The position numbers and the translations under genes are program-made. DNA of 51,308 nucleotides. Origin: a virus (taxonomy: Duplodnaviria; Caudoviricetes). Positions within the stretch are counted from its first letter, which is position 1. Each line of letters opens with the position of its first letter. The notes below the pieces were generated by a model, which saw nothing but the letters and a program-made list of their open reading frames with translations, had not been told where the DNA came from and searched no databases. Shown in pieces: positions 2,192 to 40,305 of this stretch. Location of the stretch: positions 1-51,308 of IMG/VR virus record IMGVR_UViG_3300006854_000010. The stretch is one strand, 5' to 3'.

Positions 2192-2743
2192 TTACTTGGT
2201 GAAGGCAACCTGCAGCAGATCGGCGATCACCTCGACGTTGAGCACACTCGTGCCCGTCGTGATTTCACCCACGAGCAAGTGCATCACCACCGCCGCCGCG
2301 GCCACCGGGGTGATATCGCCAGCGGTGGAACCAGTTGTCGCCGGCGCCATGGCGTACCGCGTCTGCACCGTCGCCTGATCCAGGAAGCCGGTCGTTTCGA
2401 TGACGCTCGACACCTGGACACCCGAGCCGTTGGTGTACTTGAGCACCAGGTCCTCACCGGCCGCGATGCCAGCGTATGCGGTGCCGGCTGGCTTGTGCAC
2501 CGCCACCCGCTGTACAACCCACGCGAACCCGGCCGGGGCCGCCGCGATCACCGTGATGGGCGTCGCGTTCAGCGCCAGCACCTGGGCACTGGTGATCTGC
2601 TTGAAGAAGCGCCCGCTGATCATCCGGTTCATCTGGAATCCGGACATGTTCTTCTGGCGCAGGATCAGGTTGCCGTCGTCGTTGATCCCGAACAGATCGG
2701 GTTTGACGGTCTTGGTGAGGCTGAACATCTTTACGTCTGACAT
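2192..2743 (-). CDS. Hypothetical beta-rich protein, possible virion decoration protein
   Basis: 183 aa, Ala/Thr/Gly/Val-rich, GC3-biased codons, GGAG RBS. Confidence 0.55.
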   Translation of the reverse strand: MSDVKMFSLTKTVKPDLFGINDDGNLILRQKNMSGFQMNRMISGRFFKQITSAQVLALNATPITVIAAAPAGFAWVVQRVAVHKPAGTAYAGIAAGEDLVLKYTNGSGVQVSSVIETTGFLDQATVQTRYAMAPATTGSTAGDITPVAAAAVVMHLLVGEITTGTSVLNVEVIADLLQVAFTK

Positions 2744-2859
2744 GATTCACTCCCCCGGCTCGCCGGGACGCTGACCGAATTTCCATCGGCGGGATCTGCG
2801 CGATAGTACGCGCCTATCAGTGTACAGCGTTCGATCGGCACGACACTACGCGCGCGCCG

Positions 2860-3060
2860 TCAAAACCCGTCTTGGTTAAACTGTGGAACTATTTTTGTGC
2901 CAATGCCCGGCGGGCCTGAGACTTTTGCTTCTGCCTGTGAAGCATCAGGCTCAACCACCCACGGCAAAGCCTCACGCTTTTCGGCCTTCGATGCGGCAGA
3001 GTGCTCGGCAGGCGTCAGCCATCTGACGCGCAACCCGGGCGCAACCGTCATCCGCACCAT
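2860..3060 (-). CDS. Hypothetical protein
   Basis: ATG immediately after the upstream stop; 66 aa. Confidence 0.35.
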   Translation of the reverse strand: MVRMTVAPGLRVRWLTPAEHSAASKAEKREALPWVVEPDASQAEAKVSGPPGIGTKIVPQFNQDGF

Positions 3061-3062
3061 AG

Positions 3063-3497
3063 TCAGTCCCCCACAGAGATGACACTGACGGCCTGCGATG
3101 CGGCCGGCGTGAGCGCACTGGCCAGCACATCCAGGCCCAGCACGGTCAAGGTCGCGCGCCGTTCGGCGATCACAGTGAATGCCGTCGTGCTCAGGGCCGT
3201 GAGACGCAGCACCACGGCCGGGTCTGCAGTCGGCGCGCGCTCCAGGCTCATCGCCGGAGGCGCCGAGTAGGCCGCTGAGAATGTGCCGCTGAACAGCCCG
3301 GATCCGTTGGTGCTGCCAGTGAACACTTCCGGCCGCTTGCCAGGCGCAAGGAACCTCCATGCAGTGCCGTCTGAGATCATCGGCCCGGCGCCACCCGGGC
3401 GGTCCGTGACCCAGATCAACTTGCCCTTGTAGCTCGCGGCGCTCGGCGATGTGGCTACGGTGTACTCGCCAGGCAGAGACAGCGGCTGCGGGATCAT
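3063..3497 (-). CDS. Hypothetical structural-like protein (fibre/decoration-like)
   Basis: Overlapping start/stop with neighbour; SDGTAWR and FSAAYSAPP resemble tail-fibre modules. Confidence 0.55.
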   Translation of the reverse strand: MIPQPLSLPGEYTVATSPSAASYKGKLIWVTDRPGGAGPMISDGTAWRFLAPGKRPEVFTGSTNGSGLFSGTFSAAYSAPPAMSLERAPTADPAVVLRLTALSTTAFTVIAERRATLTVLGLDVLASALTPAASQAVSVISVGD

Positions 3498-3883
3498 GTC
3501 AGCGCCACGCCGATCAGGTACACATCGGCCGTTGCCGCGGCGCCTTGCCCAGTCGTCAGCGCCAGAATCGGCGTCTCGGTGCGCTTGTTGGTGTTGGCAA
3601 GCGTCAGGGCCAGCACACCGGCCGCAGTCGTGAGCGCCGAATATACCTGCGCGGCCGCCACGATGGCCGTCCCGCCCTTGCTCGCCGCCGAGTACGCGCC
3701 CCCGGCCGCAGTTGTCAGCGACAGACTCGCGTTCGTCACGATGATGCGGTCGATCGTGTAGTCGCTGAAGTTGAACAGCTTGACCAACGATTGATCCGTG
3801 GTCACGTTCATGTTCGCGCCGATCAGGCGGAACAAAACCCGTGAATCGCCGCTGAGGCTGCCGCGCCAGAATCCGACAGCCAT
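3494..3883 (-). CDS. Hypothetical structural-like protein
   Basis: 129 aa, Ala/Thr-rich beta-type composition, tightly coupled operon. Confidence 0.6.
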   Translation of the reverse strand: MAVGFWRGSLSGDSRVLFRLIGANMNVTTDQSLVKLFNFSDYTIDRIIVTNASLSLTTAAGGAYSAASKGGTAIVAAAQVYSALTTAAGVLALTLANTNKRTETPILALTTGQGAAATADVYLIGVALT

Positions 3884-3884
3884 G

Positions 3885-4259
3885 TCACTGCGCCTCGAAT
3901 GTGCCGGTGATCGTGCTGGCAGTGCCAGCGGCGCGGATCTTGATCGACTCCAGGCCCTTCACGTCGATCTTGAGCCAACGCACCGTGGTGCCGTCGCCAG
4001 CGGCCGTGGTCAGGTCGCCACTCGCGCCGACGATCGCGCCATTGGCCGGAGGCGCCGTGTAGTCAGCCGCAGCGCTGGCGAGCGTGAAGAACGTGCCGGC
4101 GGCGCCGACCCTGGCCTGCACCACGAACTGCGACAACGCTGCCACGCCCACCACGAACGCCACCCACAGCACCTCTTGCTGGCGCACGTAGATCGTCACC
4201 ACGTCAGCAAGCCCGGTTACCGTCGCCGATACCGGGCCACTCCGAGGGTCAAAAGCCAT
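3885..4259 (-). CDS. Hypothetical structural-like protein
   Basis: MAFDPRSG start behind an AAGGAG RBS; beta-sandwich-like composition. Confidence 0.6.
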   Translation of the reverse strand: MAFDPRSGPVSATVTGLADVVTIYVRQQEVLWVAFVVGVAALSQFVVQARVGAAGTFFTLASAAADYTAPPANGAIVGASGDLTTAAGDGTTVRWLKIDVKGLESIKIRAAGTASTITGTFEAQ

Positions 4260-4263
4260 CTCA

Positions 4264-4944
4264 TCACTCCTTTTTCGCGGCGAGGTGCGCCTGCAGCCTC
4301 GCAAGTATAGAGGCGGCCACCTCCGGACGATCCAGGAGCGAGCCCAGGCGTCGCGCTACGTCGTCCGGCCTGGGCGCTTCGGTTACCTCGACAGCCACCT
4401 TGGGCGGCTCCACCACGATGCCGTATGCCTCGCGCTCCAGGATAGCAAGCGCCTTGAATGACTCCGTCCACGCCTTCATGGTCTTGGTCATCTCAGGCAG
4501 GGCGATGACTGCGCGATAGATGTCGTTTTGCTTGTCCTGCCCGTTTTCGTTCGGGGCGCGCATGATCTCGCCCAGGTGCTCAAGCTCCGGGATGTTGGCG
4601 ATCTGCGCCTCAAGCAGATCCAGCAGAGCCATATTCACCGCACGAGCCCTGCGGATGTCACTGCGCTGGCTGATCTGGACCGTCGCGGACGCGATGGCCA
4701 CAGCCTCTACGATGGCAACCTCGTTAACCTTGGAAACCGAACTGTTAACCAATGCCTTGTTAACCAGATCGTCTGCCTTGGCCTGGATCTTCGCCTTGAG
4801 GTCGCGAACCCACCCCATGGCCTTTGCCTTCTTGCTGATCATGACGTGGCTGACGCCATGGGCTTCGGCTATCTCACGAAGCGACAGCATGCCGGCACGA
4901 TAGTCGGCTTCTACGGCCTCCCAGTCGATCTGCTTGCGGCTCAT
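4264..4944 (-). CDS. terS: Terminase small subunit-like HTH protein
   Basis: N-terminal DWEAVEADYRAGMLSLREIAEAHGVSH...KKAKAMGWVR HTH and LEREAYGI motif; upstream of terL. Confidence 0.75.
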   Translation of the reverse strand: MSRKQIDWEAVEADYRAGMLSLREIAEAHGVSHVMISKKAKAMGWVRDLKAKIQAKADDLVNKALVNSSVSKVNEVAIVEAVAIASATVQISQRSDIRRARAVNMALLDLLEAQIANIPELEHLGEIMRAPNENGQDKQNDIYRAVIALPEMTKTMKAWTESFKALAILEREAYGIVVEPPKVAVEVTEAPRPDDVARRLGSLLDRPEVAASILARLQAHLAAKKE

Positions 4945-5228
4945 ACGAAGGCCGCCTCCACGGCTTCGGTGCGCGCGATCTCTGCCAACCCAGCCGGCGT
5001 GATCACGAAGTCGCCGCGGCACCCGCAGGCGCAGCCGTCCACCCACTTGCGGCGGATTAGGCTACCCATCTCTGCCGGCACGAGCTTGTCAGGGCAGCCT
5101 AGCGGGAAAGCCTGGACGACGGTAGGCATCGCCAAGGCAACATCCGACGCGCCGTAGGTGTGCCACTGGCCGGGCCGCTCCGCAAGCAGCCTCAGAATCG
5201 GCATGCGGTCTATGTCCTTGCACTGCAT
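4941..5228 (-). CDS. Hypothetical protein (winged-helix-like, GCACGCRGDF motif)
   Basis: MQCKDI start; LIRRKWVDGCACGCRGDFVITPAG; stop overlaps terS start. Confidence 0.6.
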   Translation of the reverse strand: MQCKDIDRMPILRLLAERPGQWHTYGASDVALAMPTVVQAFPLGCPDKLVPAEMGSLIRRKWVDGCACGCRGDFVITPAGLAEIARTEAVEAAFV

Positions 5229-10237: not shown

Positions 10238-10537
10238 ATGCTGACCATCGCCCACGATTCCGACCTCCGCCGCCAACTGATGATCGAAAAGCGCGCCCGC
10301 GCAATCGAGCAAGCCGGCCCGCAGGCTCATACCCGGGTGCTGGCTCCGATCCGCCTGGAGCTGCACACCGAGGGCCGCTGCTGGTACGAGGCGCGCGGCA
10401 ACACCCTCACGGCCACCAGCCAGGGCGAGAAGGTCAGCGAATTCGAGGCGCTGTTCGCCGCCAAGGCCCGCCACCCGTCCGAAGCCGTCGAGATCCGCCG
10501 CGGGGCAATGGGCGGCAGCAACATCACCCTGTTCTGA
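10238..10537 (+). CDS. Hypothetical protein
   Basis: GGAG RBS, strong GC3 bias. Confidence 0.55.
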
Positions 10538-10578
10538 CCACACACCGCGCCAGTGGCGCATCAACAAGGATACTCCAA

Positions 10579-11169
10579 ATGATCGAGATCAAGCACCGCC
10601 ACACTGGCGCCGTACTCTACACGCACGACAACGCCAGCGGCATGACCATGCGCGATGCCGCGGAAGCCGCAGTCAAATCCAGGGCCAACCTGTACGGGGC
10701 CGACCTGTACGGGGCCAACCTGTACGGGGCCAACCTGTCCAGGGCCGACCTGTACGGGGCCGACCTGTACGGGGCCAACCTGTACGGGGCCAACCTGTCC
10801 GGGGCCAACCTGTACGGGGCCAACCTGTCTGGGGCCAACCTGTCCAGGGCTAACCTGTCCGGGGCCAACCTGTCCAGGGCCAACCTGTACGGGGCTAACC
10901 TGTACGGGGCCAACCTGTACGGAGACAAGATCGCCATATCTCCGCTGTCGCTCTCCGGTTTGCACTGGGATGTGACCGTCACCGAATTCAGGCTGCGGAT
11001 CGGTTACCAAGTTCATGCGCACGCCGCATGGCCCGGATTCAGCGCCAAGGAAATCGCGGCCATGGATAGCAAGGCCTCCGAATTTTGGACCGCCAACCGC
11101 GACATGCTGCTGATGATGTGTGCTGCGCAAGCAGCGCGAGCCGCAGCCGCCACCACGCCAACCATCTGA
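10579..11169 (+). CDS. Pentapeptide repeat protein
   Basis: About 16 tandem A(N/D)L(Y/S)(G/R) repeats; [14 protein letters not shown]-terminus; LRIG-Q-H C-terminal domain. Confidence 0.9.
10684..10923 (+). repeat. 15-bp tandem repeat array (GCCAACCTGTACGGG variants)
   Basis: About 16 near-identical 15-mers encoding the pentapeptides. Confidence 0.9.
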
Positions 11170-25860: not shown

Positions 25861-26237
25861 CAATTGCCGAGATACGCGCCGTTGTTGCGCGGCGCACCTA
25901 CAAACCTGGATGGCAACTCACAGTCAACGCGAACTCTGACGGGTCTAGGCCGTACCTGCAACTGCACGTCACGGCTGCCATTTGCTCTGTATCTCTGGAG
26001 CCGTGCGAATGGAAGTCCGCCAAGCACTACCTGTCTGAGTTCATGTGTAAACAGGAGCTTGTCGGCGTATGCTTCAAGGCCATTCAGCAGGCAGAAGAGC
26101 ACGAGTTGCGCGAGTTCTTCAGGCACCGCGGCGTGCGCATATTCAATCCCCACATCGACCCAGATGCGCTGGTGAGCGTGGCCCACATCGAAGACACCAG
26201 AACCGAGCCGGTGCTGATGAAAGAGGGCCGGCCATGA
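25857..26237 (+). CDS. Conserved hypothetical protein
   Basis: YKPGW...K.YLS.FM...AEEHELREFF...RIFNPH. Confidence 0.65.
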   Translation: MTIAEIRAVVARRTYKPGWQLTVNANSDGSRPYLQLHVTAAICSVSLEPCEWKSAKHYLSEFMCKQELVGVCFKAIQQAEEHELREFFRHRGVRIFNPHIDPDALVSVAHIEDTRTEPVLMKEGRP

Positions 26238-26671
26238 TCGATAGATTCATCAGGCGCGTCACGGCTCGCCCGCCTGATCGCGTGATCGGTGGGCACGATG
26301 ACCCATACATGCTGCGCTGGTACATCCTCCCGCGCAACAGGCTGTTCAACGTCTACCTGCACCGCTTTCTGCGCAGCGATGATGATAGGGCGATGCATGA
26401 TCATCCGTTCTATAATACGTCGGTCCTACTTCGAGGCTCCTACATGGAGCACACCACAAATGGCTCGTTTGAGCGCAGCGTTTGTGATGTCGTCTTCCGC
26501 CGTGGTGTGACGCTGCACCGCATCGAGCTGCATAAAGGCCCAGCGTGGAGCCTGTTTGTAACGTCATTCAGGTACAGGGAGTGGGGGTTTGCTTGCCAAA
26601 AAGGATGGAGGCACTGGAAACAGTTTGTAGATGAGCGCGACAATGGCGCAATTGGAAGGGGGTGTGATTGA
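26234..26671 (+). CDS. Cupin-like conserved phage protein
   Basis: YMLRWY, YLHRFLRSDDDRAMHDHP, LRGSY.E, HRIEL, REWGF. Confidence 0.7.
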   Translation: MIDRFIRRVTARPPDRVIGGHDDPYMLRWYILPRNRLFNVYLHRFLRSDDDRAMHDHPFYNTSVLLRGSYMEHTTNGSFERSVCDVVFRRGVTLHRIELHKGPAWSLFVTSFRYREWGFACQKGWRHWKQFVDERDNGAIGRGCD

Positions 26672-29053: not shown

Positions 29054-29061
29054 TCACATCG

Positions 29062-29145
29062 TCCCCTGTAGCTCAGACGGGAGAGCACCAGCACGGAGAG
29101 ATACCGTGTTGTATGTCGGTGGTTCAACTCCATCCAGGGGGCTCA
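29062..29145 (+). tRNA. tRNA-like element with extended, non-canonical anticodon arm
   Basis: Acceptor TCCCCTG/CAGGGGG, D arm GCTC..GAGC, T arm GGTGG-TTCAACT-CCATC; 8-bp stem with AGAGATA loop. Confidence 0.55.
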
Positions 29146-29294: not shown

Positions 29295-29370
29295 GCCCCG
29301 GTAGCTCAGCAGGTAGAGCAGCTACCTCGTAAGTAGTCGGTCGGTGGTTCTAGACCATCCCGGGGCACCA
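29295..29370 (+). tRNA. tRNA-Thr(CGT)
   Basis: 76-nt cloverleaf: GCCCCGG/CCGGGGC, D arm GCTC/GAGC, anticodon loop CT-CGT-AA, encoded ACCA end. Confidence 0.88.
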
Positions 29371-29631
29371 TCACTTCGGCCACGATGCGATGACCTTGAC
29401 TCCTTGTGCATCGCACAGCCCCAGCGCAGCCTCTGCGCGCAACAGCCGCTCTTCGGCCTGACGCACTGTCATCGCATCCGGTGGCGCCTCAAGGCTGCAC
29501 GGCGCCCACGTCGGCGCCGGCATCGACACCGGAGGCGTCGCGGAGCTTGCGCAGCCGGTCACCGAGCCCAGGCAGCACCACATCGCGAACGTCAACACCT
29601 TGCGGGCACTGGAGCGGCTCAGCGGGGACAT
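29371..29631 (-). CDS. o-spanin (Rz1-like lipoprotein)
   Basis: Lipobox VTGC, Pro-rich linker, overlaps the 3' half of the i-spanin in another frame. Confidence 0.65.
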   Translation of the reverse strand: MSPLSRSSARKVLTFAMWCCLGSVTGCASSATPPVSMPAPTWAPCSLEAPPDAMTVRQAEERLLRAEAALGLCDAQGVKVIASWPK

Positions 29632-29857
29632 GGATCACCTCACGTAGGACTTTGGACGATCGGCTAGCCAGCGCTGCATATTGAGCCTCAGCAACAGATC
29701 GGCTGACGTAGTTGCGCTGCAGGTACTCGGCCTGTGCGCGGGCCTGTAGCGCTTTGCTGGCGTCCCAATCTGCCTGCACAGACTTGCGTCCCAGGATCGC
29801 GCCGCCCAGAAACAGCGCCATGCCGATGACGCCTGCGCTGATCTGGGTGGGAGTCAC
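29489..29857 (-). CDS. i-spanin (Rz-like)
   Basis: N-terminal TM, G...VQADWD, helical periplasmic domain. Confidence 0.65.
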   Translation of the reverse strand: MTPTQISAGVIGMALFLGGAILGRKSVQADWDASKALQARAQAEYLQRNYVSRSVAEAQYAALASRSSKVLREVIHVPAEPLQCPQGVDVRDVVLPGLGDRLRKLRDASGVDAGADVGAVQP

Positions 29858-30251: not shown

Positions 30252-30440
30252 TCAGAATCCATGCCCATCATCAGGCGGCGCAGTCTGCGCGACGAGATCA
30301 TGGGCTTGCTGGCGAGTCATCAAAGGGCCAAGCTGGGCATGCATCTTCCGCGCGTAGTCCAGTGCCACAGTCTCATCGGTGAAGAACGCATAGGCCCCCT
30401 GGGCGTCGATCACGGTGCGCACGAGTTCGATGTGTTCCAC
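30252..30440 (-). CDS. Small hypothetical protein
   Basis: GGAG RBS, GTG start, 62 aa. Confidence 0.45.
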   Translation of the reverse strand: MEHIELVRTVIDAQGAYAFFTDETVALDYARKMHAQLGPLMTRQQAHDLVAQTAPPDDGHGF

Positions 30441-30452
30441 GTCGCCTGCTCC

Positions 30453-30716
30453 CTATGCTGTTTGGTCTGCGCCACCATTCTGCGGCCGGTGGCGGATCTT
30501 GCGCAAGTCGCGCCACAGCATTGCCTCACCGATGCATGACGCCACGACAGCGGCCGGCAGCATCCACCCGGGCAGCGCCATGCCGAATGTGATGCAGATC
30601 CCTGACAGCGCGAAGAGCGCCAGGCCGACCGTTAGCACAACCCCGGTTTCGATGTGCGGATCCAGGGCCGGCCACACGGCCAACAGGATGATGACCACAC
30701 CTACGAACTCGCTCAT
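30453..30716 (-). CDS. Small multi-pass membrane protein in the lysis cassette
   Basis: Three hydrophobic segments, basic C-terminus; overlaps the holin stop. Confidence 0.6.
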   Translation of the reverse strand: MSEFVGVVIILLAVWPALDPHIETGVVLTVGLALFALSGICITFGMALPGWMLPAAVVASCIGEAMLWRDLRKIRHRPQNGGADQTA

Positions 30717-31051
30717 TTTCCAATCCCCTTCAGCGCGTTGAGCGCATTCACCAAGCGCCCAAGCAAGTCGGGCGCATCCGCTGACTTCGCCCACCGTAGC
30801 GCGCTGTCGAAAATCACGATGCCGAAGGCGCCAACGAACCCGACCACGGCTGCAGAAGCGGTCGCGTCGCCGGCGGCCCCAAGGTAGCGAGCCAGCAGCG
30901 GGCCGAAGAGCGTGGCAGCGCCCCACGACGAAGCCAGGTAGCCGAGGCGGACCAGCAGGCCGGCCGGTCCCAGCGCACGCTGCCCGAGCAGTGCACCGAG
31001 GAATCCTGGGACCCAGGGGTTGCCGATCAAATCATCTGGCTTCAGATCCAT
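30713..31051 (-). CDS. Putative holin
   Basis: 112 aa, about three TM segments (PGFLGALLG; AVVGFVGAFG), charged C-terminus, upstream of spanins. Confidence 0.65.
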   Translation of the reverse strand: MDLKPDDLIGNPWVPGFLGALLGQRALGPAGLLVRLGYLASSWGAATLFGPLLARYLGAAGDATASAAVVGFVGAFGIVIFDSALRWAKSADAPDLLGRLVNALNALKGIGK

Positions 31052-31448
31052 TTCGGCCCCATAGTAGACCCATCACAAACACCGCGAGCGATGATAGCCC
31101 GATGGCGGCCATTGGCACACCCAGGTGGCGCCCGCAGAGCCCCTGCCATTGCCCCGGCTCGCCCGTGGCGCCCGAGAACCCGGCCACCCCACATGCCTGC
31201 GTCAGCACGGCCTCTGCGCCGTACCAAGCGGCCGCCGCAAGCGTCACTGCCCGCGCCGTCCGATGCCGCATCAGTGCCACAGCGAAGATCGCCACGCACG
31301 CCCACAGGGCCGCCGCCTGGACAGCATCGGCGATGTAGTGCGCCCATTGGCGCTGCCCAGCATCGGCGAACAGGTGCTCGCCGTAGACGGCAAAGCCGCC
31401 AAGCACGACGGCGGCAGCCGACCACCAGGGCGTAGGCGGGTAGCGCAT
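31032..31448 (-). CDS. Four-pass membrane protein with a two-Cys loop
   Basis: MRYPPTPWW start overlaps the peptide stop; 138 aa; ACG...GLCG loop. Confidence 0.65.
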   Translation of the reverse strand: MRYPPTPWWSAAAVVLGGFAVYGEHLFADAGQRQWAHYIADAVQAAALWACVAIFAVALMRHRTARAVTLAAAAWYGAEAVLTQACGVAGFSGATGEPGQWQGLCGRHLGVPMAAIGLSSLAVFVMGLLWGRNGSEAR

Positions 31449-31585
31449 CACTTCGGCAGCGTGGGCGGACCGCTGCCGCCGCCACCTTGCGGCTTGACCT
31501 GGCCACTTCCGCCGCCGCCCAGCACGCGCACGACCCAGCGATAGGCTGCGGCTATGGCAGCGTGGATGCGTTTGATGGTATTCAT
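31448..31585 (-). CDS. 45-aa peptide with two GGGGSG repeats (not in ORF track)
   Basis: MNTIKRIHAAIAAAYRWVVRVLGGGGSGQVKPQGGGGSGPPTLPK; start overlaps the tailspike stop and stop overlaps the next start; AAGGA RBS. Confidence 0.7.
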   Translation of the reverse strand: MNTIKRIHAAIAAAYRWVVRVLGGGGSGQVKPQGGGGSGPPTLPK

Positions 31586-33588
31586 AGCTGGAATCCTTGC
31601 ACCTCAATTACGCCGGCGGATGACAATATTCCGCCGGTTCCAACAATTTTAAGCTGATTCGATGTGGTATCGACGACGAACTCGGGCACTGCGGGCGTAT
31701 AGTTCACCCACGTATTTAGGGCCTGTGTTTGCGCGTTTGCAATTGTGACGTATCTAGTATCAAGCGCCTGGTCACCGAATCTTAGTGTTGTAAACCCCGT
31801 GGCATTGGCCGTCATATACACACGCACAAGCGTAGGCACAAAACTGCCAGGCAAGAAATCGACGATGCCACCGCTTACAGATGATGCCCCCCACGTATAC
31901 CGCTTAGAGATGAACTTTTTACGCAGATCTGTGCCGAAGAATTTTGTGCTTACTTGAGACGGGCCGAGTGCGTTTCCTGATGTCCCAGAATTTGACTCAC
32001 CTATTACGAACATCTTCGACCCGAACCCCGGCTCTCCTGACGGGACCGTCAGCTTAATTGCTACAGAGTCCAAGCAAGTATTAGCATCAAATATCACGGG
32101 GTACGAGAAATTCCCATCTGAAGAGGATAGAGTAAGTTTTTCGCACCATAGACTTGCGTCATTGCCAAAGAACTCGCACCCAGTAATGTCTAAAACTGCC
32201 GATGTGCTGGCATTGGCGCCCAGTGGCGCATACCTGTAGATTGCTGCACCAGTGCCAGTATTGGTGTTTTGTTCGAAGTGAACGCCTTTGCAAATGAGGC
32301 TCTGCGAGAACTTGGTTTTAATGCCGATCTTGCCGTCTCCGATGGAGCCGCCTACGAATTTGAAATCGCCGCCATCAGCATCCTCATTTAGTGAATAGGC
32401 CACGTCACAGAATTCGCCAGTGCAGCTTTCAAATGTTGTTTGCCCGCCCGCCGTACTTGCGGCGCCCTTTGCGATCTTCACCCCCGTGGTGCTGAACCCC
32501 CAGAAACTTTTGCGGAATGTGTTTAGATAGGCGGTTCCTGTGAAATCAACAGAACTCTGAAAAAATGCGAATACCACATTATCCGTTGAGCATTCACGGA
32601 TGTGGAAGTCCCCGGCGTTTACTGTAGTGTCAACCCCGACAGCGGCTAGCGGTAGGGCTCCGGAGCGTCCATAAATTGCAATGTCTTTGAAGTGCACATC
32701 AGTTATTCCATACTGACCGAAAGCGTAGTTGGCCGTTGCTGCTACTAACGTGAAAGCATTCTTTGCTGTGTTGGTTTGCACAACTGCCCCACCGGCCCCA
32801 CCAGTGTATGCATTCATGAAGCTGCCGGGTCCGTCACTACGCACGGTCATGGGCTTTGTTATTCGCACGTCATCTGTTAGTTTGTATTTGAAACCGCCCG
32901 GCACGTACATAGTGCCGCCATTTGGCGTGGCTACAGAGCAGTTGCGAAACGCTGTCGTGTCATCTGTGCCGGTCGTGCCATTCCAGTCCCCAACTGCACC
33001 GTATCTGAAGACGTTGTAAGGCGCGTAAGCATAATTTGTTGGCGTTATGCCGCCGGCTACTTCAGATGCCGTCCTGCCGAACGTGTATTGCAGGAATTTA
33101 CCAAGGCCCCCTAGATACGTGAGCGAGCCGACAAATGTTGCAATCATGCCCAACCCATTGCTCGCGCTGGTGGGGTCGGCGAGTCGGGCAAGGATGCTGG
33201 CGGCAGTGCTGGCAACGAAGCCGATTGACGATGTGCCGATGGTGATCGGGTTCGCTGTGGACACCTCGAACCACAGGTCGCCATTGAACTGGTAAACGTG
33301 GACTACCGTTCCCCTGACGATGTCGCGCGCACCGTCAAAATCTCTGGCGCGAGTCCATGTGCCTGCGCCCGGATTCCATATCCCGTTGTCGATTGGATTG
33401 GTCTGATCTTTCACCAGGATGCGCAGCGGGTTGCCGTCGTCCTGCGTGAGCGTTGAACCCCAGGTGCCGCCAGCCTGCACCGCCAGACCGGACAGCGTGA
33501 TATTCGCCGTCGTGGTGTAGTCGCACGCGGTCTTCATTGCCAGGCTGCTGGATACGCCTGCGATACGGTCGATCTGTGTGGTGCTCAT
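31582..33588 (-). CDS. Tailspike/tail fibre with beta-helix (depolymerase-like) domain
   Basis: N-terminal virion anchor (TTANITLSG, RILVKDQT...NGIW, WTRARDFD); NVFRYGAVGD...TDDTTAF pectate-lyase-3-like start. Confidence 0.85.
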   Translation of the reverse strand: MSTTQIDRIAGVSSSLAMKTACDYTTTANITLSGLAVQAGGTWGSTLTQDDGNPLRILVKDQTNPIDNGIWNPGAGTWTRARDFDGARDIVRGTVVHVYQFNGDLWFEVSTANPITIGTSSIGFVASTAASILARLADPTSASNGLGMIATFVGSLTYLGGLGKFLQYTFGRTASEVAGGITPTNYAYAPYNVFRYGAVGDWNGTTGTDDTTAFRNCSVATPNGGTMYVPGGFKYKLTDDVRITKPMTVRSDGPGSFMNAYTGGAGGAVVQTNTAKNAFTLVAATANYAFGQYGITDVHFKDIAIYGRSGALPLAAVGVDTTVNAGDFHIRECSTDNVVFAFFQSSVDFTGTAYLNTFRKSFWGFSTTGVKIAKGAASTAGGQTTFESCTGEFCDVAYSLNEDADGGDFKFVGGSIGDGKIGIKTKFSQSLICKGVHFEQNTNTGTGAAIYRYAPLGANASTSAVLDITGCEFFGNDASLWCEKLTLSSSDGNFSYPVIFDANTCLDSVAIKLTVPSGEPGFGSKMFVIGESNSGTSGNALGPSQVSTKFFGTDLRKKFISKRYTWGASSVSGGIVDFLPGSFVPTLVRVYMTANATGFTTLRFGDQALDTRYVTIANAQTQALNTWVNYTPAVPEFVVDTTSNQLKIVGTGGILSSAGVIEVQGFQL

Positions 33589-33594
33589 ATGGTG

Positions 33595-36500
33595 CTATTG
33601 CTTAGATTGTGGCGATGGTACGCCAGTGATGGAGCCGCGCACGGCATCTGCTGGTCCGGTGGGCGTAACGCGATCCTGCGCCACGTCTGCAAGGTATCCA
33701 AGCGGCCGGGCCAGGGCCGGCGCCGGCAGGCCAACAGTGACAGCGATCAAGGCGGCCACATCCTTGACTGCCTTGCGCGCAGAGCCTTCGCCTGCCACGG
33801 CGTCATAGACTGACCGCGGAGAGTGGGCAGCCCGCTCGATCATGCTGATTGCTGGCGCAGTGCCAACGCGATCATCGTAGGGCTTGTTGTTCCACGAGTT
33901 GATTGCGACGTTGGCGACTGGGCCGACGATTGGAACCATCGCCCAGGCCGACCTGCCAAGCCCGAGCCCAAGGCTTGCAAGCCAGTCGTCGATATAGCCA
34001 TCCCCATCATCATCTGCCGGGCCGCCGCGCGCAGCCTGAACGATCACTTCGCTGATGAGCGCAGGAACAAAGAACCCCATGGTGAAGACGTAGAGCCCTC
34101 GGCCCATGCCGGCGCGCAGGCCCAGCTCGCGTTGCGTCTTTGCGAACTCGGTCCCGAGCAGGTTCGCTTGCATATTAAAGTATCCCTGGAACTGCGTGAG
34201 CACCCGAGTTATAGCCGTGCCGGCCTCGAAGTTGCTGATATCCTCCGGCAAGTTGCTGCCCTGGGTTTCTCGCACTACTGAATCAGCCTGTCGGCGCGCG
34301 TCAAGCTCGCCAACTCCGGCCTCCATGGCCTCGTTGTACGCGCCCGTCCAAATGATCGGCCCCATCACGTTGTCCACGGCAGACTGCATGAAGTACGCAT
34401 GCCGAGCCGCCCAAGCCTGCGCCTTCTGAAACACGTTCGGATTCAGCAGGATCTCATCAATCGCAGAGTTCATCGCGTGCACCTCACTATCCATGCGCGA
34501 TGACATGTATGAAGAGGCTTCTGCCACGCTCTTGGCGGTCTTGCTGGGATTCTTGAGGTATTGCACCAGCCCGGCGCGCAGATGCTTCGGCTTCACGCGC
34601 AGGGCCGCCAGGCCAAAGCCAGTGATCTGCTGCGCCGCATTCACCACGTTGGCGAACATCGCAGCCATGCCGGCGCGCGATCGAGCGATGCTGATGTAGC
34701 GCATCAGGCCGTTGTACGCCGGCACCGGAGTTTCGATCTGCTGGCGCGCCGCCCGGTTCAGCCACGGTATCAGCATGCCATCGTAGGCGCTCGGGTCCAT
34801 GCGCGAAAGCGGCTCGCGCACTGACGAATCGCCCAGCAGCCGGCGCACCTCGCGCACTGGGCGCTCCATGTGGGTGAACATCAGCACCTTGTCCAGGTGG
34901 CCGCTCAGGCTGCGCAAGTCCAGCAGCAGCGCCTTGTTGTACTCGACCCGCCCCTTGGTGAATCCCTTGGATGTGGACGGGTACGCCTGCGCCATCGTCT
35001 GGTTTTCTTCCTCAATGATGGCGCGGGTCTTGGCATCGCTCACAGCGCGTGGGTCAGCCATGGCCGGCACGTAGCCGCCGCGATAGGTCCCGAACGGTGT
35101 CACAACCTCGTTCGCCGTGATCTCATCGAAGCTGCGCCCGAATACCTCCCGGTGCGTTTTCTGGGCTTCAGCCTTCATCTCTTCCAGCAGATCCCACACG
35201 CCCTGCGCAAAGTCGTACTCGGCCTTGCCGATCACGCCCGTGTCGTGCATGCGCTTCAGGAACGCGTCCCACTTCGTCGTGTCGAGCGTTCCGTCTGCGT
35301 TTTGCGTGGCCCACCTGCGCCCCAGAAGCAGCTTGCGCTTGTTGCTGTCGTTGCCGGTGTGCAGGATGGCGTGGATGATCTCCTGCTTGCCGCTGCCGCC
35401 AGTATCTCGACCGAATGTGTAGCCAAGCTCCTTCGCTTCGATGCGCGAGCTTCCAAGGTCCAGCTTGTCCAGCAGAGCCAGGTAGCGCTTGCGATAGGCG
35501 GCCTGGGCGGCCCGGTACTTGTCGGCCGCATCCTTGATCGGGTTGAACACGTACTTGCGGAACGCGCCTTGGTGGCCAAGATCGCGCGCGTTCACCCACG
35601 ATTCAACCCGGCGCAGGCCGGCGCGCGCAGATCGCAGCGTGGCCACAACCGTTTCGGCCGGCGTGACCGCGTAGCCTTCGCCAGGAATACGGCCTGGCAC
35701 ACCCTCTGCCGCCAGTGATGCAGCCACCTCTTCGGCCGCCTCCTGCTGGTCGATCAGGTTGCCATCGATCTCCATCTGCCGCACGCGCCTGGATTGCGCC
35801 CACCACACGTCAAGCTCGTCAGTCAGCGCGCGGAACTCGTCCACCGTGGTGAGCTTGTAGTCCTTCGCGTCGGCAGTCAGTTGCGCCACAGCATCGAACA
35901 TCCGCGCATGACTGTCCGGGTCGTGACCCTTGAGCGCCTCCAGGTACTTCATGGCCGGCTCGCCCTTGGTGCCGATGCCGTAGTCCGCCAGTATGGCGCG
36001 CATGGCCTGCACCATGTCTGCGTCGCGCGTCTTCGCCACCTCCTTGATGGACTTGTTGGCGGCGCGTCGGTATACGTCCACCTTGCGTTTGATGAGTGCC
36101 TGGGCGTCACGTGCCGCGGCGGCGGCGTAGACGTTCACCAGCTCGTTGCGCTTCTCCGTCGCAGCCTTGGCGATGTCGCCGGCCTTGAATGCCTTGTTCG
36201 CAGCAATGGCCGCCTTGCGCGCCGCCGCCTCGAACTTCTCCGGCCGCAGCTCGCCGACCTTCTGCCAGCCGACAACTTGGGCCGCGAACGCCTTGGCCGC
36301 CTTGGTGACCGTCTTCGTGCGCGTGCCAGCCGCTTTCTCCAGGGCGCCAAGCTCCGTTGCCAGCACGCGGGCGCGGGCATCGTTCGACACCGCTTCTAGG
36401 GCCGCCTGCGCAAGTTCTTCGGGGTTGGCGATGTCGCCGTAGCGCTCCATCATCATGGCGTCGGTCTGCGCCTCCACGGCCTGGGCCGGAGTCATCGCCA

Positions 36501-39500
36501 TCCGCAGTGCGTCAACCAATGCCTCCCCGGAGTCGTACCCGAATAGCTCGGCCACGATGTCGGGATGCATGCCGCCGCTTTCCTGCGTCATGCGCAATGC
36601 TTCGAGCTTGCGCCACGCGGCACCTGGCGAGTCACCGAACATCTCCTTCATGGCCGACGTGCGCAGCTTGCCGACGCTGGCTGTCGTATCAAGCAGCTCA
36701 ACGTCCGTGACGCCTGGCACCACAGCCTCGCCGGACTTGCCGGTCAGGAACGCCCAGGCGCGATACACAGGCCGCGCCATGACGATGCTGCGCGCCTCAG
36801 CCTTGACCTCGCGGCGCTTGTCGGCCGCCTCGCGCTGCAGCTCCTTGAGCTTGGCTGACTTGGCGTTTTCAAGCCACTTCAGATCGTTCAGCCGGCGCTT
36901 GTCCAGCGTGGTTTCCGCATCGGCATCAGCGTCCGCATCGGCATTCTGGTAGGCGCGGTAGTCCAGCCCCAACTTCTTCGCGTCGGCCTCGTTGAACATC
37001 AGCCCCATGGATTGCGCCGCCTTCGCCTGGGCGATCTCGTCATCGGTGGCAATCATGCGGTCCATCACAGCGCGCACTTCGTCCGACAGCTTCACGTCCA
37101 ACGCAGTCATGGAGCGGTACAGCCGGCGCAGCCAGCCGCGGAAGCGCTGGAACGCGCCAGCCAGCGCAGAAGATGGCGCCTTGCCCTCAAAGGCGTAGGC
37201 CTCGAACCCGCGGGCGAACTTCTCGTGATGCTCGCGCTGCTGCTCCAGCGGCATGGAGTTCCACACCTCGGTTGCCGTCAGGCCCTCTTCGGCCTTGATG
37301 CCGAACCAGTCAAGAACCGTTTCCATGTCGGTCTTGATGTCGGCCGGCGCATCGTCGCGCGCAGCAATTGCGCCCATCTGGTCCAAGAACAGATGGCCAC
37401 TTTCGTGAATCAGCGTACTGAAATTCGCGTCAGCAAGCAGAGCAATCGTGTTGGCGTCTGGCGTGTAGGTGCCGCGCAGGGCTGGCGCCTGTGGGCCGGC
37501 CGGGCCCGCTTGGCCTTGCTTTTGGTTGAGTGACTTGGCGTGCGCCTCGGCCTGAGCCCTGGCGCGAGCCACCGCTGACGCCTTCACGTCGTCACCCTGG
37601 CTCAGCACCGTCCACTCCTTGGCGCCGACTCCGCGCTGAAGGATCACCTGACCAGCGCGCGCCTTCGTGTCAACCGCGTCGACACCGATCAACGGGCGGA
37701 CGGCCCCACTCTTGTCCACCATCAGGCAGACTTGGCCGGCGGCCCTCTCTTGCGCCAGCCGGCTCTGCGCCTCCATGCCGGCCGCGCTCTCGCCGCTGGC
37801 GTTGTTCGTCGTTGACTGTGCAAGTGAGCCGAGACTTGTGGATGGCTCTCGAACCATGCCGGCCATGGTCGTGAAGTCCTTGCTACGGCCCTTGTTCGGC
37901 TTGAATCCAAGCGACTTGTAAAACTTCTCTAGCTTCGCCTTGCTGGTGCCCGGCTCCATGGGCTCAGCCGTCAATACAACCTGCTGGCCGTTGGCGTCTG
38001 CAGCAGCAACCACAGCCCCCAGCGCCTTGCGTGCGCCGCCCTGTCTGCGGGCCTCTTTCGGCGTGCGGATCATGGATACATCGATGCGTCCGCCGTCTCG
38101 TGACACGGAATACTCGATGGTTGATGATCCAAGCGTGAATGTATTCGCTGTGCCTGGCGAAACGCTCAAGGCCGACTGCTCAAGCGCGCCACCCGTTGGC
38201 GTGGTGCCGGCGATGTTCACCGGGTATTGCTGGAACGCCTGCTCTGGCGTGACGCCAAGGCGCGAGCCCAGCGCCGCATAGCGCGCAGCCAGCAGAGCGG
38301 CATTCTGCTTGTTCACGTCTGGCGTGAATCTGCCGGTGGCGTTCAACTGCTCAATGAACTGCTGCGCCAGCGCGTTGCGGCTGCGGTCTTGCGCGTCCTG
38401 CTGGTCAGCCTTGGCGAGCGCTTCAGACAAGGCTTTCTCGGCATCTGGCCCAGCATCCTTCATGACCACATCCGCCTGGGCCTTGCTCATCCCATTCGGA
38501 TCCGTCTTCAGGTGCGGGATGATTCCTTGCGCGAACGATTGCCCGGCCACGTTGGCGCCGAACTCTGCCGCGGGGATCTGGATGTCAACCCCAGACGCCA
38601 GCGACTCGGCGGCTTGCTGAGCCGCGGCAGGAGACACCTCAACCAGTTGACGTAGCGCAGCCTCATCCAGGTCCCTCGCATCGACGTAAACATCCTTTAC
38701 AGGCCCATCTCGGGCGACTTCCTGCCAGAACGATTGCCAGTCATCGGCGCTGCGTTCGCGCACCTTGGATGCCTGTGCCAGCTTGTCGATTTCATCAAGC
38801 GCCTGCGCGCCCGCCGCGGCCTTGTCTGCGGCCAGCTTCTGCGGATCTGCTTCCAGCTTGCCGGCCACCTTCGCCAGCGCGTGGGCGGCACCCGTCTGGG
38901 CACCGGTGCCAACGATGGTCGCAATCAGCGTCTCGATGGCCGCCGCGGGCCGCTCGGCCGCGTAGGCGCTGAACGGCTTCTCTGGGTGCAGCGTGGCCCA
39001 CTCGTTGAAATCCTGCGCCAGCGTGGCAACCTGCTCTCCCGGGATCTCCGTGACCATCTGGTGCATGATGGTCTTCATGAACGATGATCCGGCCTTCAGA
39101 TCGCCAAGCAGCTTGGCAACCGGCAGCTTCTCGGTTGCAACCTCAATCGCTCCGTCGATGGCGCCGAAGGCCAGCGCACGCGTGCCGCTCAGCCCAGCAT
39201 CCAGAGCCTTAGCGGTTGACTGACCGGCCGTTGTCACGCCCGCACTCAGCAGGGCGAACGCCGGGTTTCCGGTGGCGATAGACGCGGCAATGCCGGGCGC
39301 CTGTTGCCCGATGGACTGGATGCCTGAGCGCACGCCGCGGCGGATCACGCCGGCGTCCTCTGGCAGCGGCCCGGCCACGTCTTCGGTGACTTGCTCGGCG
39401 CCCTTGCGGAACGCCTTGATGGCGTCGGTTGCGGTAGCTGGCTGCGGTCCGGCTGGGCGGATGTCTGGCTCAACCTGGAATCCAGCCATGCCGAGCGGGC

Positions 39501-40305
39501 CTGCATTGGCTCCAACGGCGGCAGCCGTGAGGAACCTGCCCATGTCGCGCGCATCCTGGCGCACCCTGGCCGAAATGTCTTCCTTGGCCTGCGAGATGCC
39601 CTCGGCCATCCCGGCCACGCCACCCACGGCGGACGGCACACCAGATGCCAGCGTGCGCACCGCCGAAGCGCCCTCGTACCAAACCCGCTCCAGCGCAGAC
39701 ATGTTGTCCACGTCGTCGTGCGCCACCTTGGCCCGCGCTCCATCCGCGGCGATCCATGAGCGCAGGGCCGGCGCGCGCTCCATGGCTGCGTTGGCGTCAT
39801 CCAGCTTGGCGCGCTGCTTGTAGTCATCGCCGAACGCGTCCACCAGGTCGGCCGGGATGTTGTACCGCTTCGCTAGGCGCTGCTTTTCGGCCTCTTGATC
39901 CGGGTTCGCGCCGACGCCAAGCAGCATGTTTGGCTTGGCGTTTGGGTTCTTGGCCGCATCGTACAAACCGTCCAGGTCCTGATCTATCTTCGCTCCGTAC
40001 TTCTCGGCTTGCTGCTGGTGAAGCCTTTCAGCGTATGCGTTTGATGCCGCCACACTTGAAAATTTACCAAGGTGTCGGCCAGTCTTTTGGTATGCGCTGA
40101 TTGCCTCATCGTCGCCCATGATCCTTCCGTCATCGCTAACGGTTGGTATAAGAACTTCTTGGCCATCGATATTCACACCCATTGACCTGACGGTGCTAAT
40201 TGTCCCGTCTGCATTCTTTACAACAGGCCGCTTGCCAAGGTCGATATTTCCAGGCACCACAGGTGCGCCAGCGGCATTGCTATAAAGCTCGTCAAGCGTC
40301 GGCAT
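33595..40305 (-). CDS. Giant internal virion/ejection protein (large polyvalent protein; GNAT-like and HExxH domains)
   Basis: 2236 aa in the T7 gp16-like position; LIHESGH motif; ARRQGGAR...LEKFYKSLGF GNAT-like insert. Confidence 0.8.
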   Translation of the reverse strand: MPTLDELYSNAAGAPVVPGNIDLGKRPVVKNADGTISTVRSMGVNIDGQEVLIPTVSDDGRIMGDDEAISAYQKTGRHLGKFSSVAASNAYAERLHQQQAEKYGAKIDQDLDGLYDAAKNPNAKPNMLLGVGANPDQEAEKQRLAKRYNIPADLVDAFGDDYKQRAKLDDANAAMERAPALRSWIAADGARAKVAHDDVDNMSALERVWYEGASAVRTLASGVPSAVGGVAGMAEGISQAKEDISARVRQDARDMGRFLTAAAVGANAGPLGMAGFQVEPDIRPAGPQPATATDAIKAFRKGAEQVTEDVAGPLPEDAGVIRRGVRSGIQSIGQQAPGIAASIATGNPAFALLSAGVTTAGQSTAKALDAGLSGTRALAFGAIDGAIEVATEKLPVAKLLGDLKAGSSFMKTIMHQMVTEIPGEQVATLAQDFNEWATLHPEKPFSAYAAERPAAAIETLIATIVGTGAQTGAAHALAKVAGKLEADPQKLAADKAAAGAQALDEIDKLAQASKVRERSADDWQSFWQEVARDGPVKDVYVDARDLDEAALRQLVEVSPAAAQQAAESLASGVDIQIPAAEFGANVAGQSFAQGIIPHLKTDPNGMSKAQADVVMKDAGPDAEKALSEALAKADQQDAQDRSRNALAQQFIEQLNATGRFTPDVNKQNAALLAARYAALGSRLGVTPEQAFQQYPVNIAGTTPTGGALEQSALSVSPGTANTFTLGSSTIEYSVSRDGGRIDVSMIRTPKEARRQGGARKALGAVVAAADANGQQVVLTAEPMEPGTSKAKLEKFYKSLGFKPNKGRSKDFTTMAGMVREPSTSLGSLAQSTTNNASGESAAGMEAQSRLAQERAAGQVCLMVDKSGAVRPLIGVDAVDTKARAGQVILQRGVGAKEWTVLSQGDDVKASAVARARAQAEAHAKSLNQKQGQAGPAGPQAPALRGTYTPDANTIALLADANFSTLIHESGHLFLDQMGAIAARDDAPADIKTDMETVLDWFGIKAEEGLTATEVWNSMPLEQQREHHEKFARGFEAYAFEGKAPSSALAGAFQRFRGWLRRLYRSMTALDVKLSDEVRAVMDRMIATDDEIAQAKAAQSMGLMFNEADAKKLGLDYRAYQNADADADADAETTLDKRRLNDLKWLENAKSAKLKELQREAADKRREVKAEARSIVMARPVYRAWAFLTGKSGEAVVPGVTDVELLDTTASVGKLRTSAMKEMFGDSPGAAWRKLEALRMTQESGGMHPDIVAELFGYDSGEALVDALRMAMTPAQAVEAQTDAMMMERYGDIANPEELAQAALEAVSNDARARVLATELGALEKAAGTRTKTVTKAAKAFAAQVVGWQKVGELRPEKFEAAARKAAIAANKAFKAGDIAKAATEKRNELVNVYAAAAARDAQALIKRKVDVYRRAANKSIKEVAKTRDADMVQAMRAILADYGIGTKGEPAMKYLEALKGHDPDSHARMFDAVAQLTADAKDYKLTTVDEFRALTDELDVWWAQSRRVRQMEIDGNLIDQQEAAEEVAASLAAEGVPGRIPGEGYAVTPAETVVATLRSARAGLRRVESWVNARDLGHQGAFRKYVFNPIKDAADKYRAAQAAYRKRYLALLDKLDLGSSRIEAKELGYTFGRDTGGSGKQEIIHAILHTGNDSNKRKLLLGRRWATQNADGTLDTTKWDAFLKRMHDTGVIGKAEYDFAQGVWDLLEEMKAEAQKTHREVFGRSFDEITANEVVTPFGTYRGGYVPAMADPRAVSDAKTRAIIEEENQTMAQAYPSTSKGFTKGRVEYNKALLLDLRSLSGHLDKVLMFTHMERPVREVRRLLGDSSVREPLSRMDPSAYDGMLIPWLNRAARQQIETPVPAYNGLMRYISIARSRAGMAAMFANVVNAAQQITGFGLAALRVKPKHLRAGLVQYLKNPSKTAKSVAEASSYMSSRMDSEVHAMNSAIDEILLNPNVFQKAQAWAARHAYFMQSAVDNVMGPIIWTGAYNEAMEAGVGELDARRQADSVVRETQGSNLPEDISNFEAGTAITRVLTQFQGYFNMQANLLGTEFAKTQRELGLRAGMGRGLYVFTMGFFVPALISEVIVQAARGGPADDDGDGYIDDWLASLGLGLGRSAWAMVPIVGPVANVAINSWNNKPYDDRVGTAPAISMIERAAHSPRSVYDAVAGEGSARKAVKDVAALIAVTVGLPAPALARPLGYLADVAQDRVTPTGPADAVRGSITGVPSPQSKQ

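Follow-up and report, generated by a model that had tools for sequence, protein, structure and literature searches.

The DNA analyzed here (the window; positions 1 to 51,308 of IMG/VR virus record IMGVR_UViG_3300006854_000010) is a complete virus genome of 51,308 bp, with direct terminal repeats at its ends. The virus is judged to be a podophage from the T7-type head-tail connector and capsid that its sequence encodes. Two DNA sequencing runs labelled as rhizosphere metagenome contain this DNA and may be its source; no RNA run is listed as containing it. The lysis cassette of this virus opens with a two-gene unit, which encodes a 45-residue protein ending in a glycine-rich motif and a 138-residue four-helix membrane protein. 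Both are real genes, they are conserved as a pair, their starts and stops overlap, and they are located in lysis cassettes. On the basis of this gene context, we tentatively propose that the pair is an accessory unit that tunes the timing of lysis and is antiholin-like in its role, a reading to which we give somewhat less than an even chance.

The small gene and its protein family

The 45-residue open reading frame (ORF) is located on the minus strand at 31448-31585 and starts with ATG, exactly as quoted in the preliminary description of this DNA. It was overlooked in the ORF list solely because of its shortness. The public protein collection already contains it as the predicted protein P0062; since the window ORF is among the matches of the profile search, gene callers had predicted the small gene before. 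It is almost certain that the ORF is a genuine protein-coding gene. Its ATG is preceded, 9 nucleotides upstream, by the Shine-Dalgarno box AAGGA, which is present upstream of the small ORF in four of the first five loci examined, and a sixth locus, L007, contains AAGGAG. The small ORF of L002, the closest relative, the membrane protein of which is 88% identical, differs from that of the window by 21 substitutions, distributed over the three codon positions as 4/3/14. They correspond to 14.8 synonymous and 6.2 non-synonymous differences, which gives proportions of differing synonymous and non-synonymous sites of 0.54 (pS) and 0.08 (pN), respectively, and a pN/pS of 0.15. The length difference between the two ORFs is 11 codons, in frame. 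In a second close pair, the small ORFs of L003 and L025, the pN/pS is 0.29 and the substitutions are distributed as 11/5/21. The glycine codons vary (GGC, GGT, GGA, and GGG), with the peptide motif fixed. The two GGGGSG copies of the window protein also differ in their DNA sequences, and Tandem Repeats Finder reported nothing.

The 138-residue frame of the membrane protein, compared with that of L002, has a pN/pS of 0.14 and substitutions distributed over the codon positions as 10/10/47. An antisense ORF of 139 residues (31125-31544, plus strand), which has a high GC content at third codon positions and was picked by a crude filter for this property, is a GC-content artefact; it was rejected because the substitutions fit the minus-strand frame. 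No canonical slippery heptamer that could mediate a frameshift fusion was seen by eye.

A profile search covering a collection of 5.8 billion proteins identified a family of 39 small proteins, which are 33-100 residues long, most of them 45-53. All but one of them (38 of 39) contain a GGGG run, preceded by VM in 31 members and by VL in five. The residue after the run is serine in 16 members, proline in 18, and glycine in two, and is followed by glycine. Only two to six residues come after the motif. The consensus near the C-terminal end is [KR]V[ML]GGGG[S/P/G]G, with VMGGGG[S/P]G as the commonest form, and the GGGG run is located four to eight codons before the stop throughout the family. The two glycine-rich core copies pointed out in the preliminary description are present in the window protein; however, it is the single member of the 39 with two GGGG runs, the double copy being peculiar to this genome within the close family. 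The motif was doubled independently in three lineages, those of the window and of the distant L016 and L012, and these independent doublings mark it as a modular unit.

Most of the small proteins can be divided into three parts: a weakly hydrophobic N-terminal helix rich in threonine, alanine, and glycine, a cluster of arginines and lysines, and a short amphipathic helix with the motif at its end. The maximum hydropathy over 15 residues reaches at least 1.4 in 34 of the 39 members. Forms of 33 residues without the hydrophobic anchor occur in two separate lineages, one represented by P0064 and P0065 and the other by L020. The window form and its nearest relatives, which have 33 residues, have lost the middle part, and the anchor-less form of L020 is independent of this loss. 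Before the motif, the window form and these relatives have kept only a basic amphipathic helix, which is homologous to the N-terminal helix of the L007 protein. According to the positive-inside rule, the position of the lysine and arginine cluster after the hydrophobic helix places the glycine motif of the anchored forms in the cytoplasm. The motif is therefore predicted to be exposed at the face of the membrane opposite to the conserved loops of the membrane protein. The anchor-less forms have no signal sequence and must, as a consequence, act in the cytoplasm.

The membrane protein and its linkage to the small gene

Gene context was inspected in 14 loci. Nine loci were retrieved with the membrane protein as the query, and in seven of them a small ORF abuts or overlaps the start of the membrane-protein gene. 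The motif forms in these seven loci are GGGGSGP.., PQGGGGPGEE.., PQGGGPGEE in duplicate, and DGGPG in duplicate. In L015 (3030-3470), the motif ends a 146-residue membrane protein, apparently because the small protein is fused there to a membrane protein encoded upstream. By eye, the counterpart of this fused membrane protein in L023 (oriented 10417-10722) is a separate 101-residue gene upstream of the small gene. When the motif was back-translated and used in two scans of DNA, five and 17 loci were obtained, 22 together, and the motif ends a small ORF in six of them. Two of these small ORFs are on contigs that were already known and four are new (L007, L020, L023, and L025), and the membrane-protein gene follows directly after the small ORF in all six. 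The membrane proteins of the four new loci were detected by hmmsearch with E values of 4.2e-32, 5.7e-27, 8.1e-23, and 7.2e-13. The remaining 16 loci of the motif scans were rejected as chance matches inside unrelated ORFs that have no membrane-protein neighbour. A locus search with one sub-alignment of the membrane protein (A4) found nothing. Homologs of the membrane protein do carry an upstream GGGG peptide and sit with lysis genes, and the test by which the preliminary description could have been refuted thus did not refute it. In nearly all cases, the small gene directly precedes the gene of a four-helix membrane protein of 117-146 residues and overlaps its start. It is very probable that the small protein and the membrane protein are an obligate pair.

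A word search identified 17 homologs of the 138-residue protein. A profile search of 1.84 billion representatives gave only 11 matches to it, and because all of them have 117-143 residues, no fused forms are known. The structure predicted by AlphaFold2 from an alignment of 26 sequences, with a predicted local distance difference test score (pLDDT) of 79.9, contains four long helices, formed by residues 8-26, 30-59, 63-91, and 113-132, in agreement with the four passes through the membrane ascribed to the protein before. Loop 2 contains on average 2.73 lysines and arginines as opposed to 0.08 aspartates and glutamates per sequence, and loops 1 and 3 are neutral to acidic, a charge pattern that indicates a topology with both termini inside. 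Near-invariant positions are Y38, E79, C86, P98, G103, L104, C105, and P112. These residues, including those of the PxQWQGLCGR loop, are predicted to be oriented mostly towards the periplasmic side. The protein contains three cysteines (51, 86, and 105) rather than the two of the loop that had been described; nevertheless, C86 and C105 do flank a loop and are the conserved pair. Of the 26 sequences, 25 have both, whereas P0018 and L007 have neither. The joint loss of the two cysteines fits a disulfide pair, and a C86-C105 disulfide probably connects the two conserved loops in the periplasm. The gene of the 138-residue protein has no clear Shine-Dalgarno box.

The window membrane protein matches none of the known holin families in Pfam, PHROGs, or NCBIfam. 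Fifteen of its relatives have no matches in PHROGs and only single sub-threshold ones in Pfam, such as that of one member to the LydA holin (E 0.0067). Among GenBank phages, there is no DNA match for the window segment 29000-34000 and no protein match for the small protein, the 112-residue protein encoded downstream of the pair, a capsid-region ORF, or three distant family members, and the 138-residue protein produces only noise at E=10. Reference prokaryote genomes contain no relative of the membrane protein. The sequence profiles of the PDB gave no matches for the membrane protein and only ones with E>=0.15 for the small protein. A first AlphaFold2 model of the membrane protein (pLDDT 64.6) had no Foldseek match in the PDB at E<=0.001, and neither had the second model in BFVD at the same threshold. 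The ESM Atlas matches belong to unnamed clusters, the best scores being 0.90 and 0.77. The best VIA-align matches of the second model, to BAR-type and other helical bundles, reach a Z score of 9.0, and the helix hairpin of the histidine kinase GacS one of 7.3 over 68 residues; both are under the level that the tool sets for helical bundles. None of the fold matches of the protein stands out from generic helical bundles. In a limited search of the literature, the motif or the pair was not found described, which is weak evidence for their absence from print.

The lysis cassette and its surroundings

From the tailspike gene onwards, the following genes are arranged on the minus strand of the window.

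31582-33588, minus strand: tailspike/tail fibre gene, 668 residues; upstream neighbour of the small gene
31448-31585, minus strand: small protein gene, 45 residues, ATG start; basic amphipathic N-terminal helix, then GGGGSG twice
31032-31448, minus strand: four-helix inner-membrane protein, 138 residues; from modelled helices and homolog alignments
30713-31051, minus strand: holin-like membrane protein, 112 residues; weak PHROG holin match (E 0.0096), no Pfam match
30453-30716, minus strand: membrane protein, best holin candidate, 87 residues; three hydrophobic helices, basic C-terminal tail, weak PHROG holin match (E 0.032)
30252-30440, minus strand: conserved protein without a family match, 62 residues
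29857-30096, minus strand: crAss001_48-related protein, 79 residues; Pfam PF21825, E 1.2e-18
29489-29857, minus strand: candidate Rz-like inner-membrane spanin, 122 residues; weak PHROG Rz-like matches (E 0.033), N-terminal transmembrane helix, embedded Rz1 gene
29371-29631, minus strand: Rz1/LysC-like outer-membrane lipoprotein spanin, 86 residues; embedded in the Rz frame, PF23793 LysC, E 5.3e-07 (above cut-off)

The stop codon TGA of the tailspike gene and the ATG of the small gene overlap as ATGA, the TGA of the small gene and the ATG of the 138-residue protein gene share one base (TGATG), and the latter gene overlaps that of the 112-residue holin-like protein by 20 nucleotides, all of which had been noted correctly in the preliminary description. 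The junction between the genes of the 112- and 87-residue proteins also overlaps as ATGA. All four window genes, those of the 45-, 138-, 112-, and 87-residue proteins, are translationally coupled. The N-terminal 126 residues of the tailspike match PHROG 14824 (E 3.3e-27) and the tail fibre family PHROG 11518 (E 3.9e-10). At the other end of the cassette, the Rz1/LysC-like protein of 86 residues matches the Rz-like spanin PHROG 456 (E 1.1e-08) and a VTGC lipobox is visible in its translation; its gene (29371-29631) is embedded in the Rz-like gene (29489-29857), the arrangement that identifies a spanin pair.

The pair adjoins holin-like or other lysis-cassette genes in all 14 loci. According to hidden Markov model searches, the 112-residue holin-like type is encoded downstream in eight of the 14 loci, and the 87-residue type in seven. 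A different pair of downstream membrane proteins is present in L014, L023, and L025, and a third kind in L016, where the small gene and the membrane-protein gene are positioned between Rz/Rz1 and a holin-like gene. Mostly, the pair comes after a tail fibre gene; in L007 and L016, it has no tail fibre neighbour, yet it is located among lysis genes, which indicates linkage to lysis and not to the tail. The endolysins of the sister cassettes belong to Phage_lysozyme in L013 and L020 and to GH19 in L014, according to Pfam, and to a PHROG endolysin family in L016. Rz/Rz1-like pairs in most sister loci, and a peptidase-like protein in L003, were labelled by eye. The 112-residue holin-like protein has nine homologs, none of which has a name.

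An endolysin was sought in the window by six-frame searches with five Pfam endolysin families, which gave no matches, and by tblastn with seven endolysin candidates from sister cassettes, the best E value of which was 0.37. Pfam and PHROG scans of 30 other window ORFs detected no muralytic domain. The 62-residue protein (30252-30440) has no family match in Pfam, PHROG, or further family libraries. Look-alikes of it with 62-98 residues were recognized by eye in L002, L005, and L025, in or beside the slot of the sister endolysin candidates. In three sister loci, the endolysin slot is occupied by a phrog_3108 protein of about 168 residues (E down to 8e-40; L004:4890-5396, L025:4224-4733 on the minus strand, and L007:1604-2353 on the minus strand). 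This protein, which has no Pfam match and is encoded between holin-like genes and Rz/Rz1, may represent an unrecognised endolysin family. Its by-eye label as lytic-transglycosylase-like was not confirmed.

Several other features of the genome were observed. Two tRNA genes on the plus strand, for serine (anticodon AGA) and threonine (anticodon CGT), are located at 29061-29144 and 29295-29370, and the second of them ends one base before the stop of the Rz1 gene. The ORF at 26069-26671 on the plus strand matches phrog_4786, annotated as cysteine dioxygenase (E 9.8e-52), and may be an auxiliary metabolic gene. Upstream of the tailspike gene, positions 33595-40305 of the minus strand encode a 2236-residue protein of the virion region with an LPD22 'large polyvalent protein' domain (E 2.1e-20) and an HExxH motif seen by eye; a muralytic domain was not detected in it. 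Four ORFs of 129-183 residues at 2192-4304 on the minus strand adjoin the gene of the small terminase subunit (4264-5046, phrog_1206) and have no Pfam or PHROG matches.

Possible roles of the pair

In the proposed mechanism, ribosomes finishing the tailspike gene would restart on the small gene, and those finishing the small gene would continue with the gene of the membrane protein, in front of which a good ribosome-binding site is lacking. Such termination and reinitiation suggests that both proteins are made together late in infection. The membrane protein would insert into the inner membrane with both termini in the cytoplasm and its conserved, disulfide-stapled loops in the periplasm, and the small protein would be positioned at the cytoplasmic face, where it would present the glycine motif. 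The two proteins would form an inner-membrane accessory complex, which would determine when the downstream holin makes the membrane permeable. Such a role would be that of an antiholin or a lysis clock, with LysA of phage P2 as a counterpart in position and topology. Since the downstream membrane proteins beside which the pair is kept belong to at least three unrelated sets, its target may be a common membrane property or a host factor instead of one holin.

Several known systems can be compared with the pair. The phage T4 proteins RI and RIII are two small proteins that regulate the holin T, one from the periplasm and one from the cytoplasm, and RI has a weakly hydrophobic N-terminal anchor. 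The likeness to the pair would lie in the regulation of a holin by two small proteins, one at either side of the membrane; PHROGs reveals no similarity in sequence, and the periplasmic partner in T4 is a soluble domain, whereas that of the window is a four-helix integral membrane protein. AcrZ and MgrB are small membrane-protein subunits or regulators of the larger membrane proteins AcrB and PhoQ. They resemble the small protein as one-helix proteins of 30-50 residues that are made together with, and presumably bound to, a larger membrane protein; however, they are cellular, are not encoded among phage lysis genes, and have no glycine motif. AimP of the arbitrium system of Bacillus phages has a secretion signal and a soluble cytoplasmic tetratricopeptide-repeat receptor, AimR, and controls lysogeny in Gram-positive hosts. 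It is likewise encoded by a small phage ORF of about 40-50 residues, the conserved part of which is C-terminal. Unlike AimP, the window small protein has no signal sequence, is accompanied by a membrane partner, and is encoded by a late lysis-operon gene in a phage in which no tyrosine integrase was found.

The closest parallel in gene position and topology is P2 LysA. According to PMC3091744, this antiholin has four helices and a gene of its own, is non-essential, and influences the timing of lysis, and putative antiholins of three to four helices are encoded directly upstream of the holins in the P2-like Burkholderia phages KS14 and KL3. LysA and the 138-residue protein are both separate four-helix proteins of about 115-140 residues, encoded in a lysis cassette by the holin, just after tail genes. 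The model and gene context of the 138-residue protein display the features of the LysA type presented in that text, four transmembrane helices and a position in the cassette by the holin. LysA has no coupled partner with a glycine motif, whereas the window family has conserved periplasmic motifs and a cysteine pair. By this analogy, the pair may work like a LysA-type regulator, yet it is not a member of the LysA family.

A number of results weigh against a role in lysis timing. Neither protein is tied to it by homology. The small protein and the membrane protein have no matches in Pfam, PHROGs, NCBIfam, or PADLOC, and the alignment of the 26-sequence profile to P2 LysA by hhalign (probability 0.17%, E 0.35) reveals no sequence relationship. 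The 112- and 87-residue proteins are candidate holins, called from weak PHROG matches (E 0.0096 and 0.032, respectively), topology, and position. The window genome has no recognisable endolysin, and the cassette may therefore not work in the textbook way. In L013, the membrane protein occurs without the small gene. An antiholin that binds a specific holin is not expected to be accompanied by at least three different types of downstream membrane proteins, and polar motifs as strongly conserved as those of the membrane protein are not usual in holins or antiholins.

The pair could instead have a late membrane function other than lysis timing and merely share the late operon, for example superinfection exclusion, by blocking the ejection channel of the incoming phage or by protection against lysis from without. 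The pair stays the same when the downstream membrane proteins change family, which suggests that its target is not one particular holin, and the residues that are best conserved in the membrane protein are predicted to face the periplasm, where incoming phage components arrive. However, the adjacency to holin-like or lysis genes in 14 of 14 loci, together with the position between Rz/Rz1 and a holin-like gene in L016, the translational coupling of the four window genes, and the lack of a PADLOC match make such a function unlikely. Known exclusion proteins are usually made early or from a prophage, which counts against it as well. Another alternative, in which the glycine motif is cleaved or modified by the membrane protein, acting as an intramembrane enzyme or as a processing or immunity partner much as in the maturation of ribosomally made peptides, would give a meaning to the near-invariant polar residues in or near the membrane (Y38, E79, C86, C105, and P112) and to the strict conservation of the glycine run. 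It is very improbable: the protein has no enzyme family or fold match, the cysteine pair is dispensable, as it was lost in P0018 and L007, and the conserved loops and the motif are predicted to be on opposite sides of the membrane. The explanation that the small ORF is only a translated leader, or its G-rich RNA a ribosome tether, with a peptide that has no function of its own, builds on the stop of the small ORF, which abuts or overlaps the next start in the loci that carry it, on the absence of a clear Shine-Dalgarno box in front of the membrane-protein gene, and on the place of GGGG, which is always four to eight codons before the stop. Nevertheless, purifying selection extends over the whole peptide, including its N-terminal half (pN/pS 0.15), and the VM before and the S/P-G after the GGGG run are conserved, with the third positions of the glycine codons varying freely. 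Runs of GGC and GGT do not resemble a Shine-Dalgarno sequence, the RNA has no unusual structure (folding z -0.44), Rfam detects only the two tRNAs and nothing at this region, and L013 has the membrane protein without a leader. We rejected the RNA-level explanation, and consider it extremely improbable that the peptide has no function.

The preliminary description had interpreted the two proteins as a possible peptide and its receptor, which together could tune lysis timing or superinfection or mimic a host peptide signal. Of this proposal, the real gene, its tie to the membrane protein, and the link to lysis genes are supported, and the peptide signalling is not. As a precursor of a peptide signal, exported or released by lysis, the small protein would reach neighbouring infected cells, where the conserved loops of the membrane protein in the periplasm would sense it and lysis timing or superinfection would be adjusted. 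The motif is like a modular short linear motif, being invariant, near the C-terminus, and independently doubled in the window, L016, and L012; conserved loops of the partner are predicted to be in the periplasm, and lysis would release the peptide without export. However, by hydropathy, as distinct from a dedicated predictor, the window protein has no N-terminal secretion signal (maximum of 0.99 over 19 residues), and the 33-residue forms contain no hydrophobic helix. In the anchored forms, the charge pattern places the motif in the cytoplasm. The second core copy, found in one of 39 members, and the anchor-less forms likewise weigh against a processed precursor with a repeated core. The phage genome contains no match at E<=0.1 to the C39 peptidase (PF03412), the enzyme that cuts double-glycine-leader peptides of the bacteriocin or peptide pheromone type after GG, and no tyrosine integrase was found in the complete genome, in which AimR was not searched for. 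No sensor-domain fold matches the membrane protein above background, and an unprocessed peptide of 33-53 residues would not cross the outer membrane. It is highly doubtful that the small protein is such a precursor. There is just as little reason to expect that the glycine-motif protein or a fragment of it, released by the burst, acts as an extracellular cue that shifts the lysis time of neighbours, a Gram-negative, lysis-stage counterpart of arbitrium or of T4 lysis inhibition with a peptide instead of a virion as the signal.

Few parts of phage biology are understood as well as lysis cassettes, yet the two-gene unit that opens this one matches neither a solved fold nor a family in Pfam, PHROGs, NCBIfam, or PADLOC. 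The pair is conserved over a clade of uncultured podophages and is characterized by the unusually strict miniature motif VMGGGG[S/P]G. Genes of 33-53 codons that are wedged between overlapping stops and starts escape the default ORF-length cut-offs. If the pair sets the time of lysis, it would be a new type of holin regulator, compatible with several unrelated holin sets, and would be useful for understanding and engineering lysis clocks.

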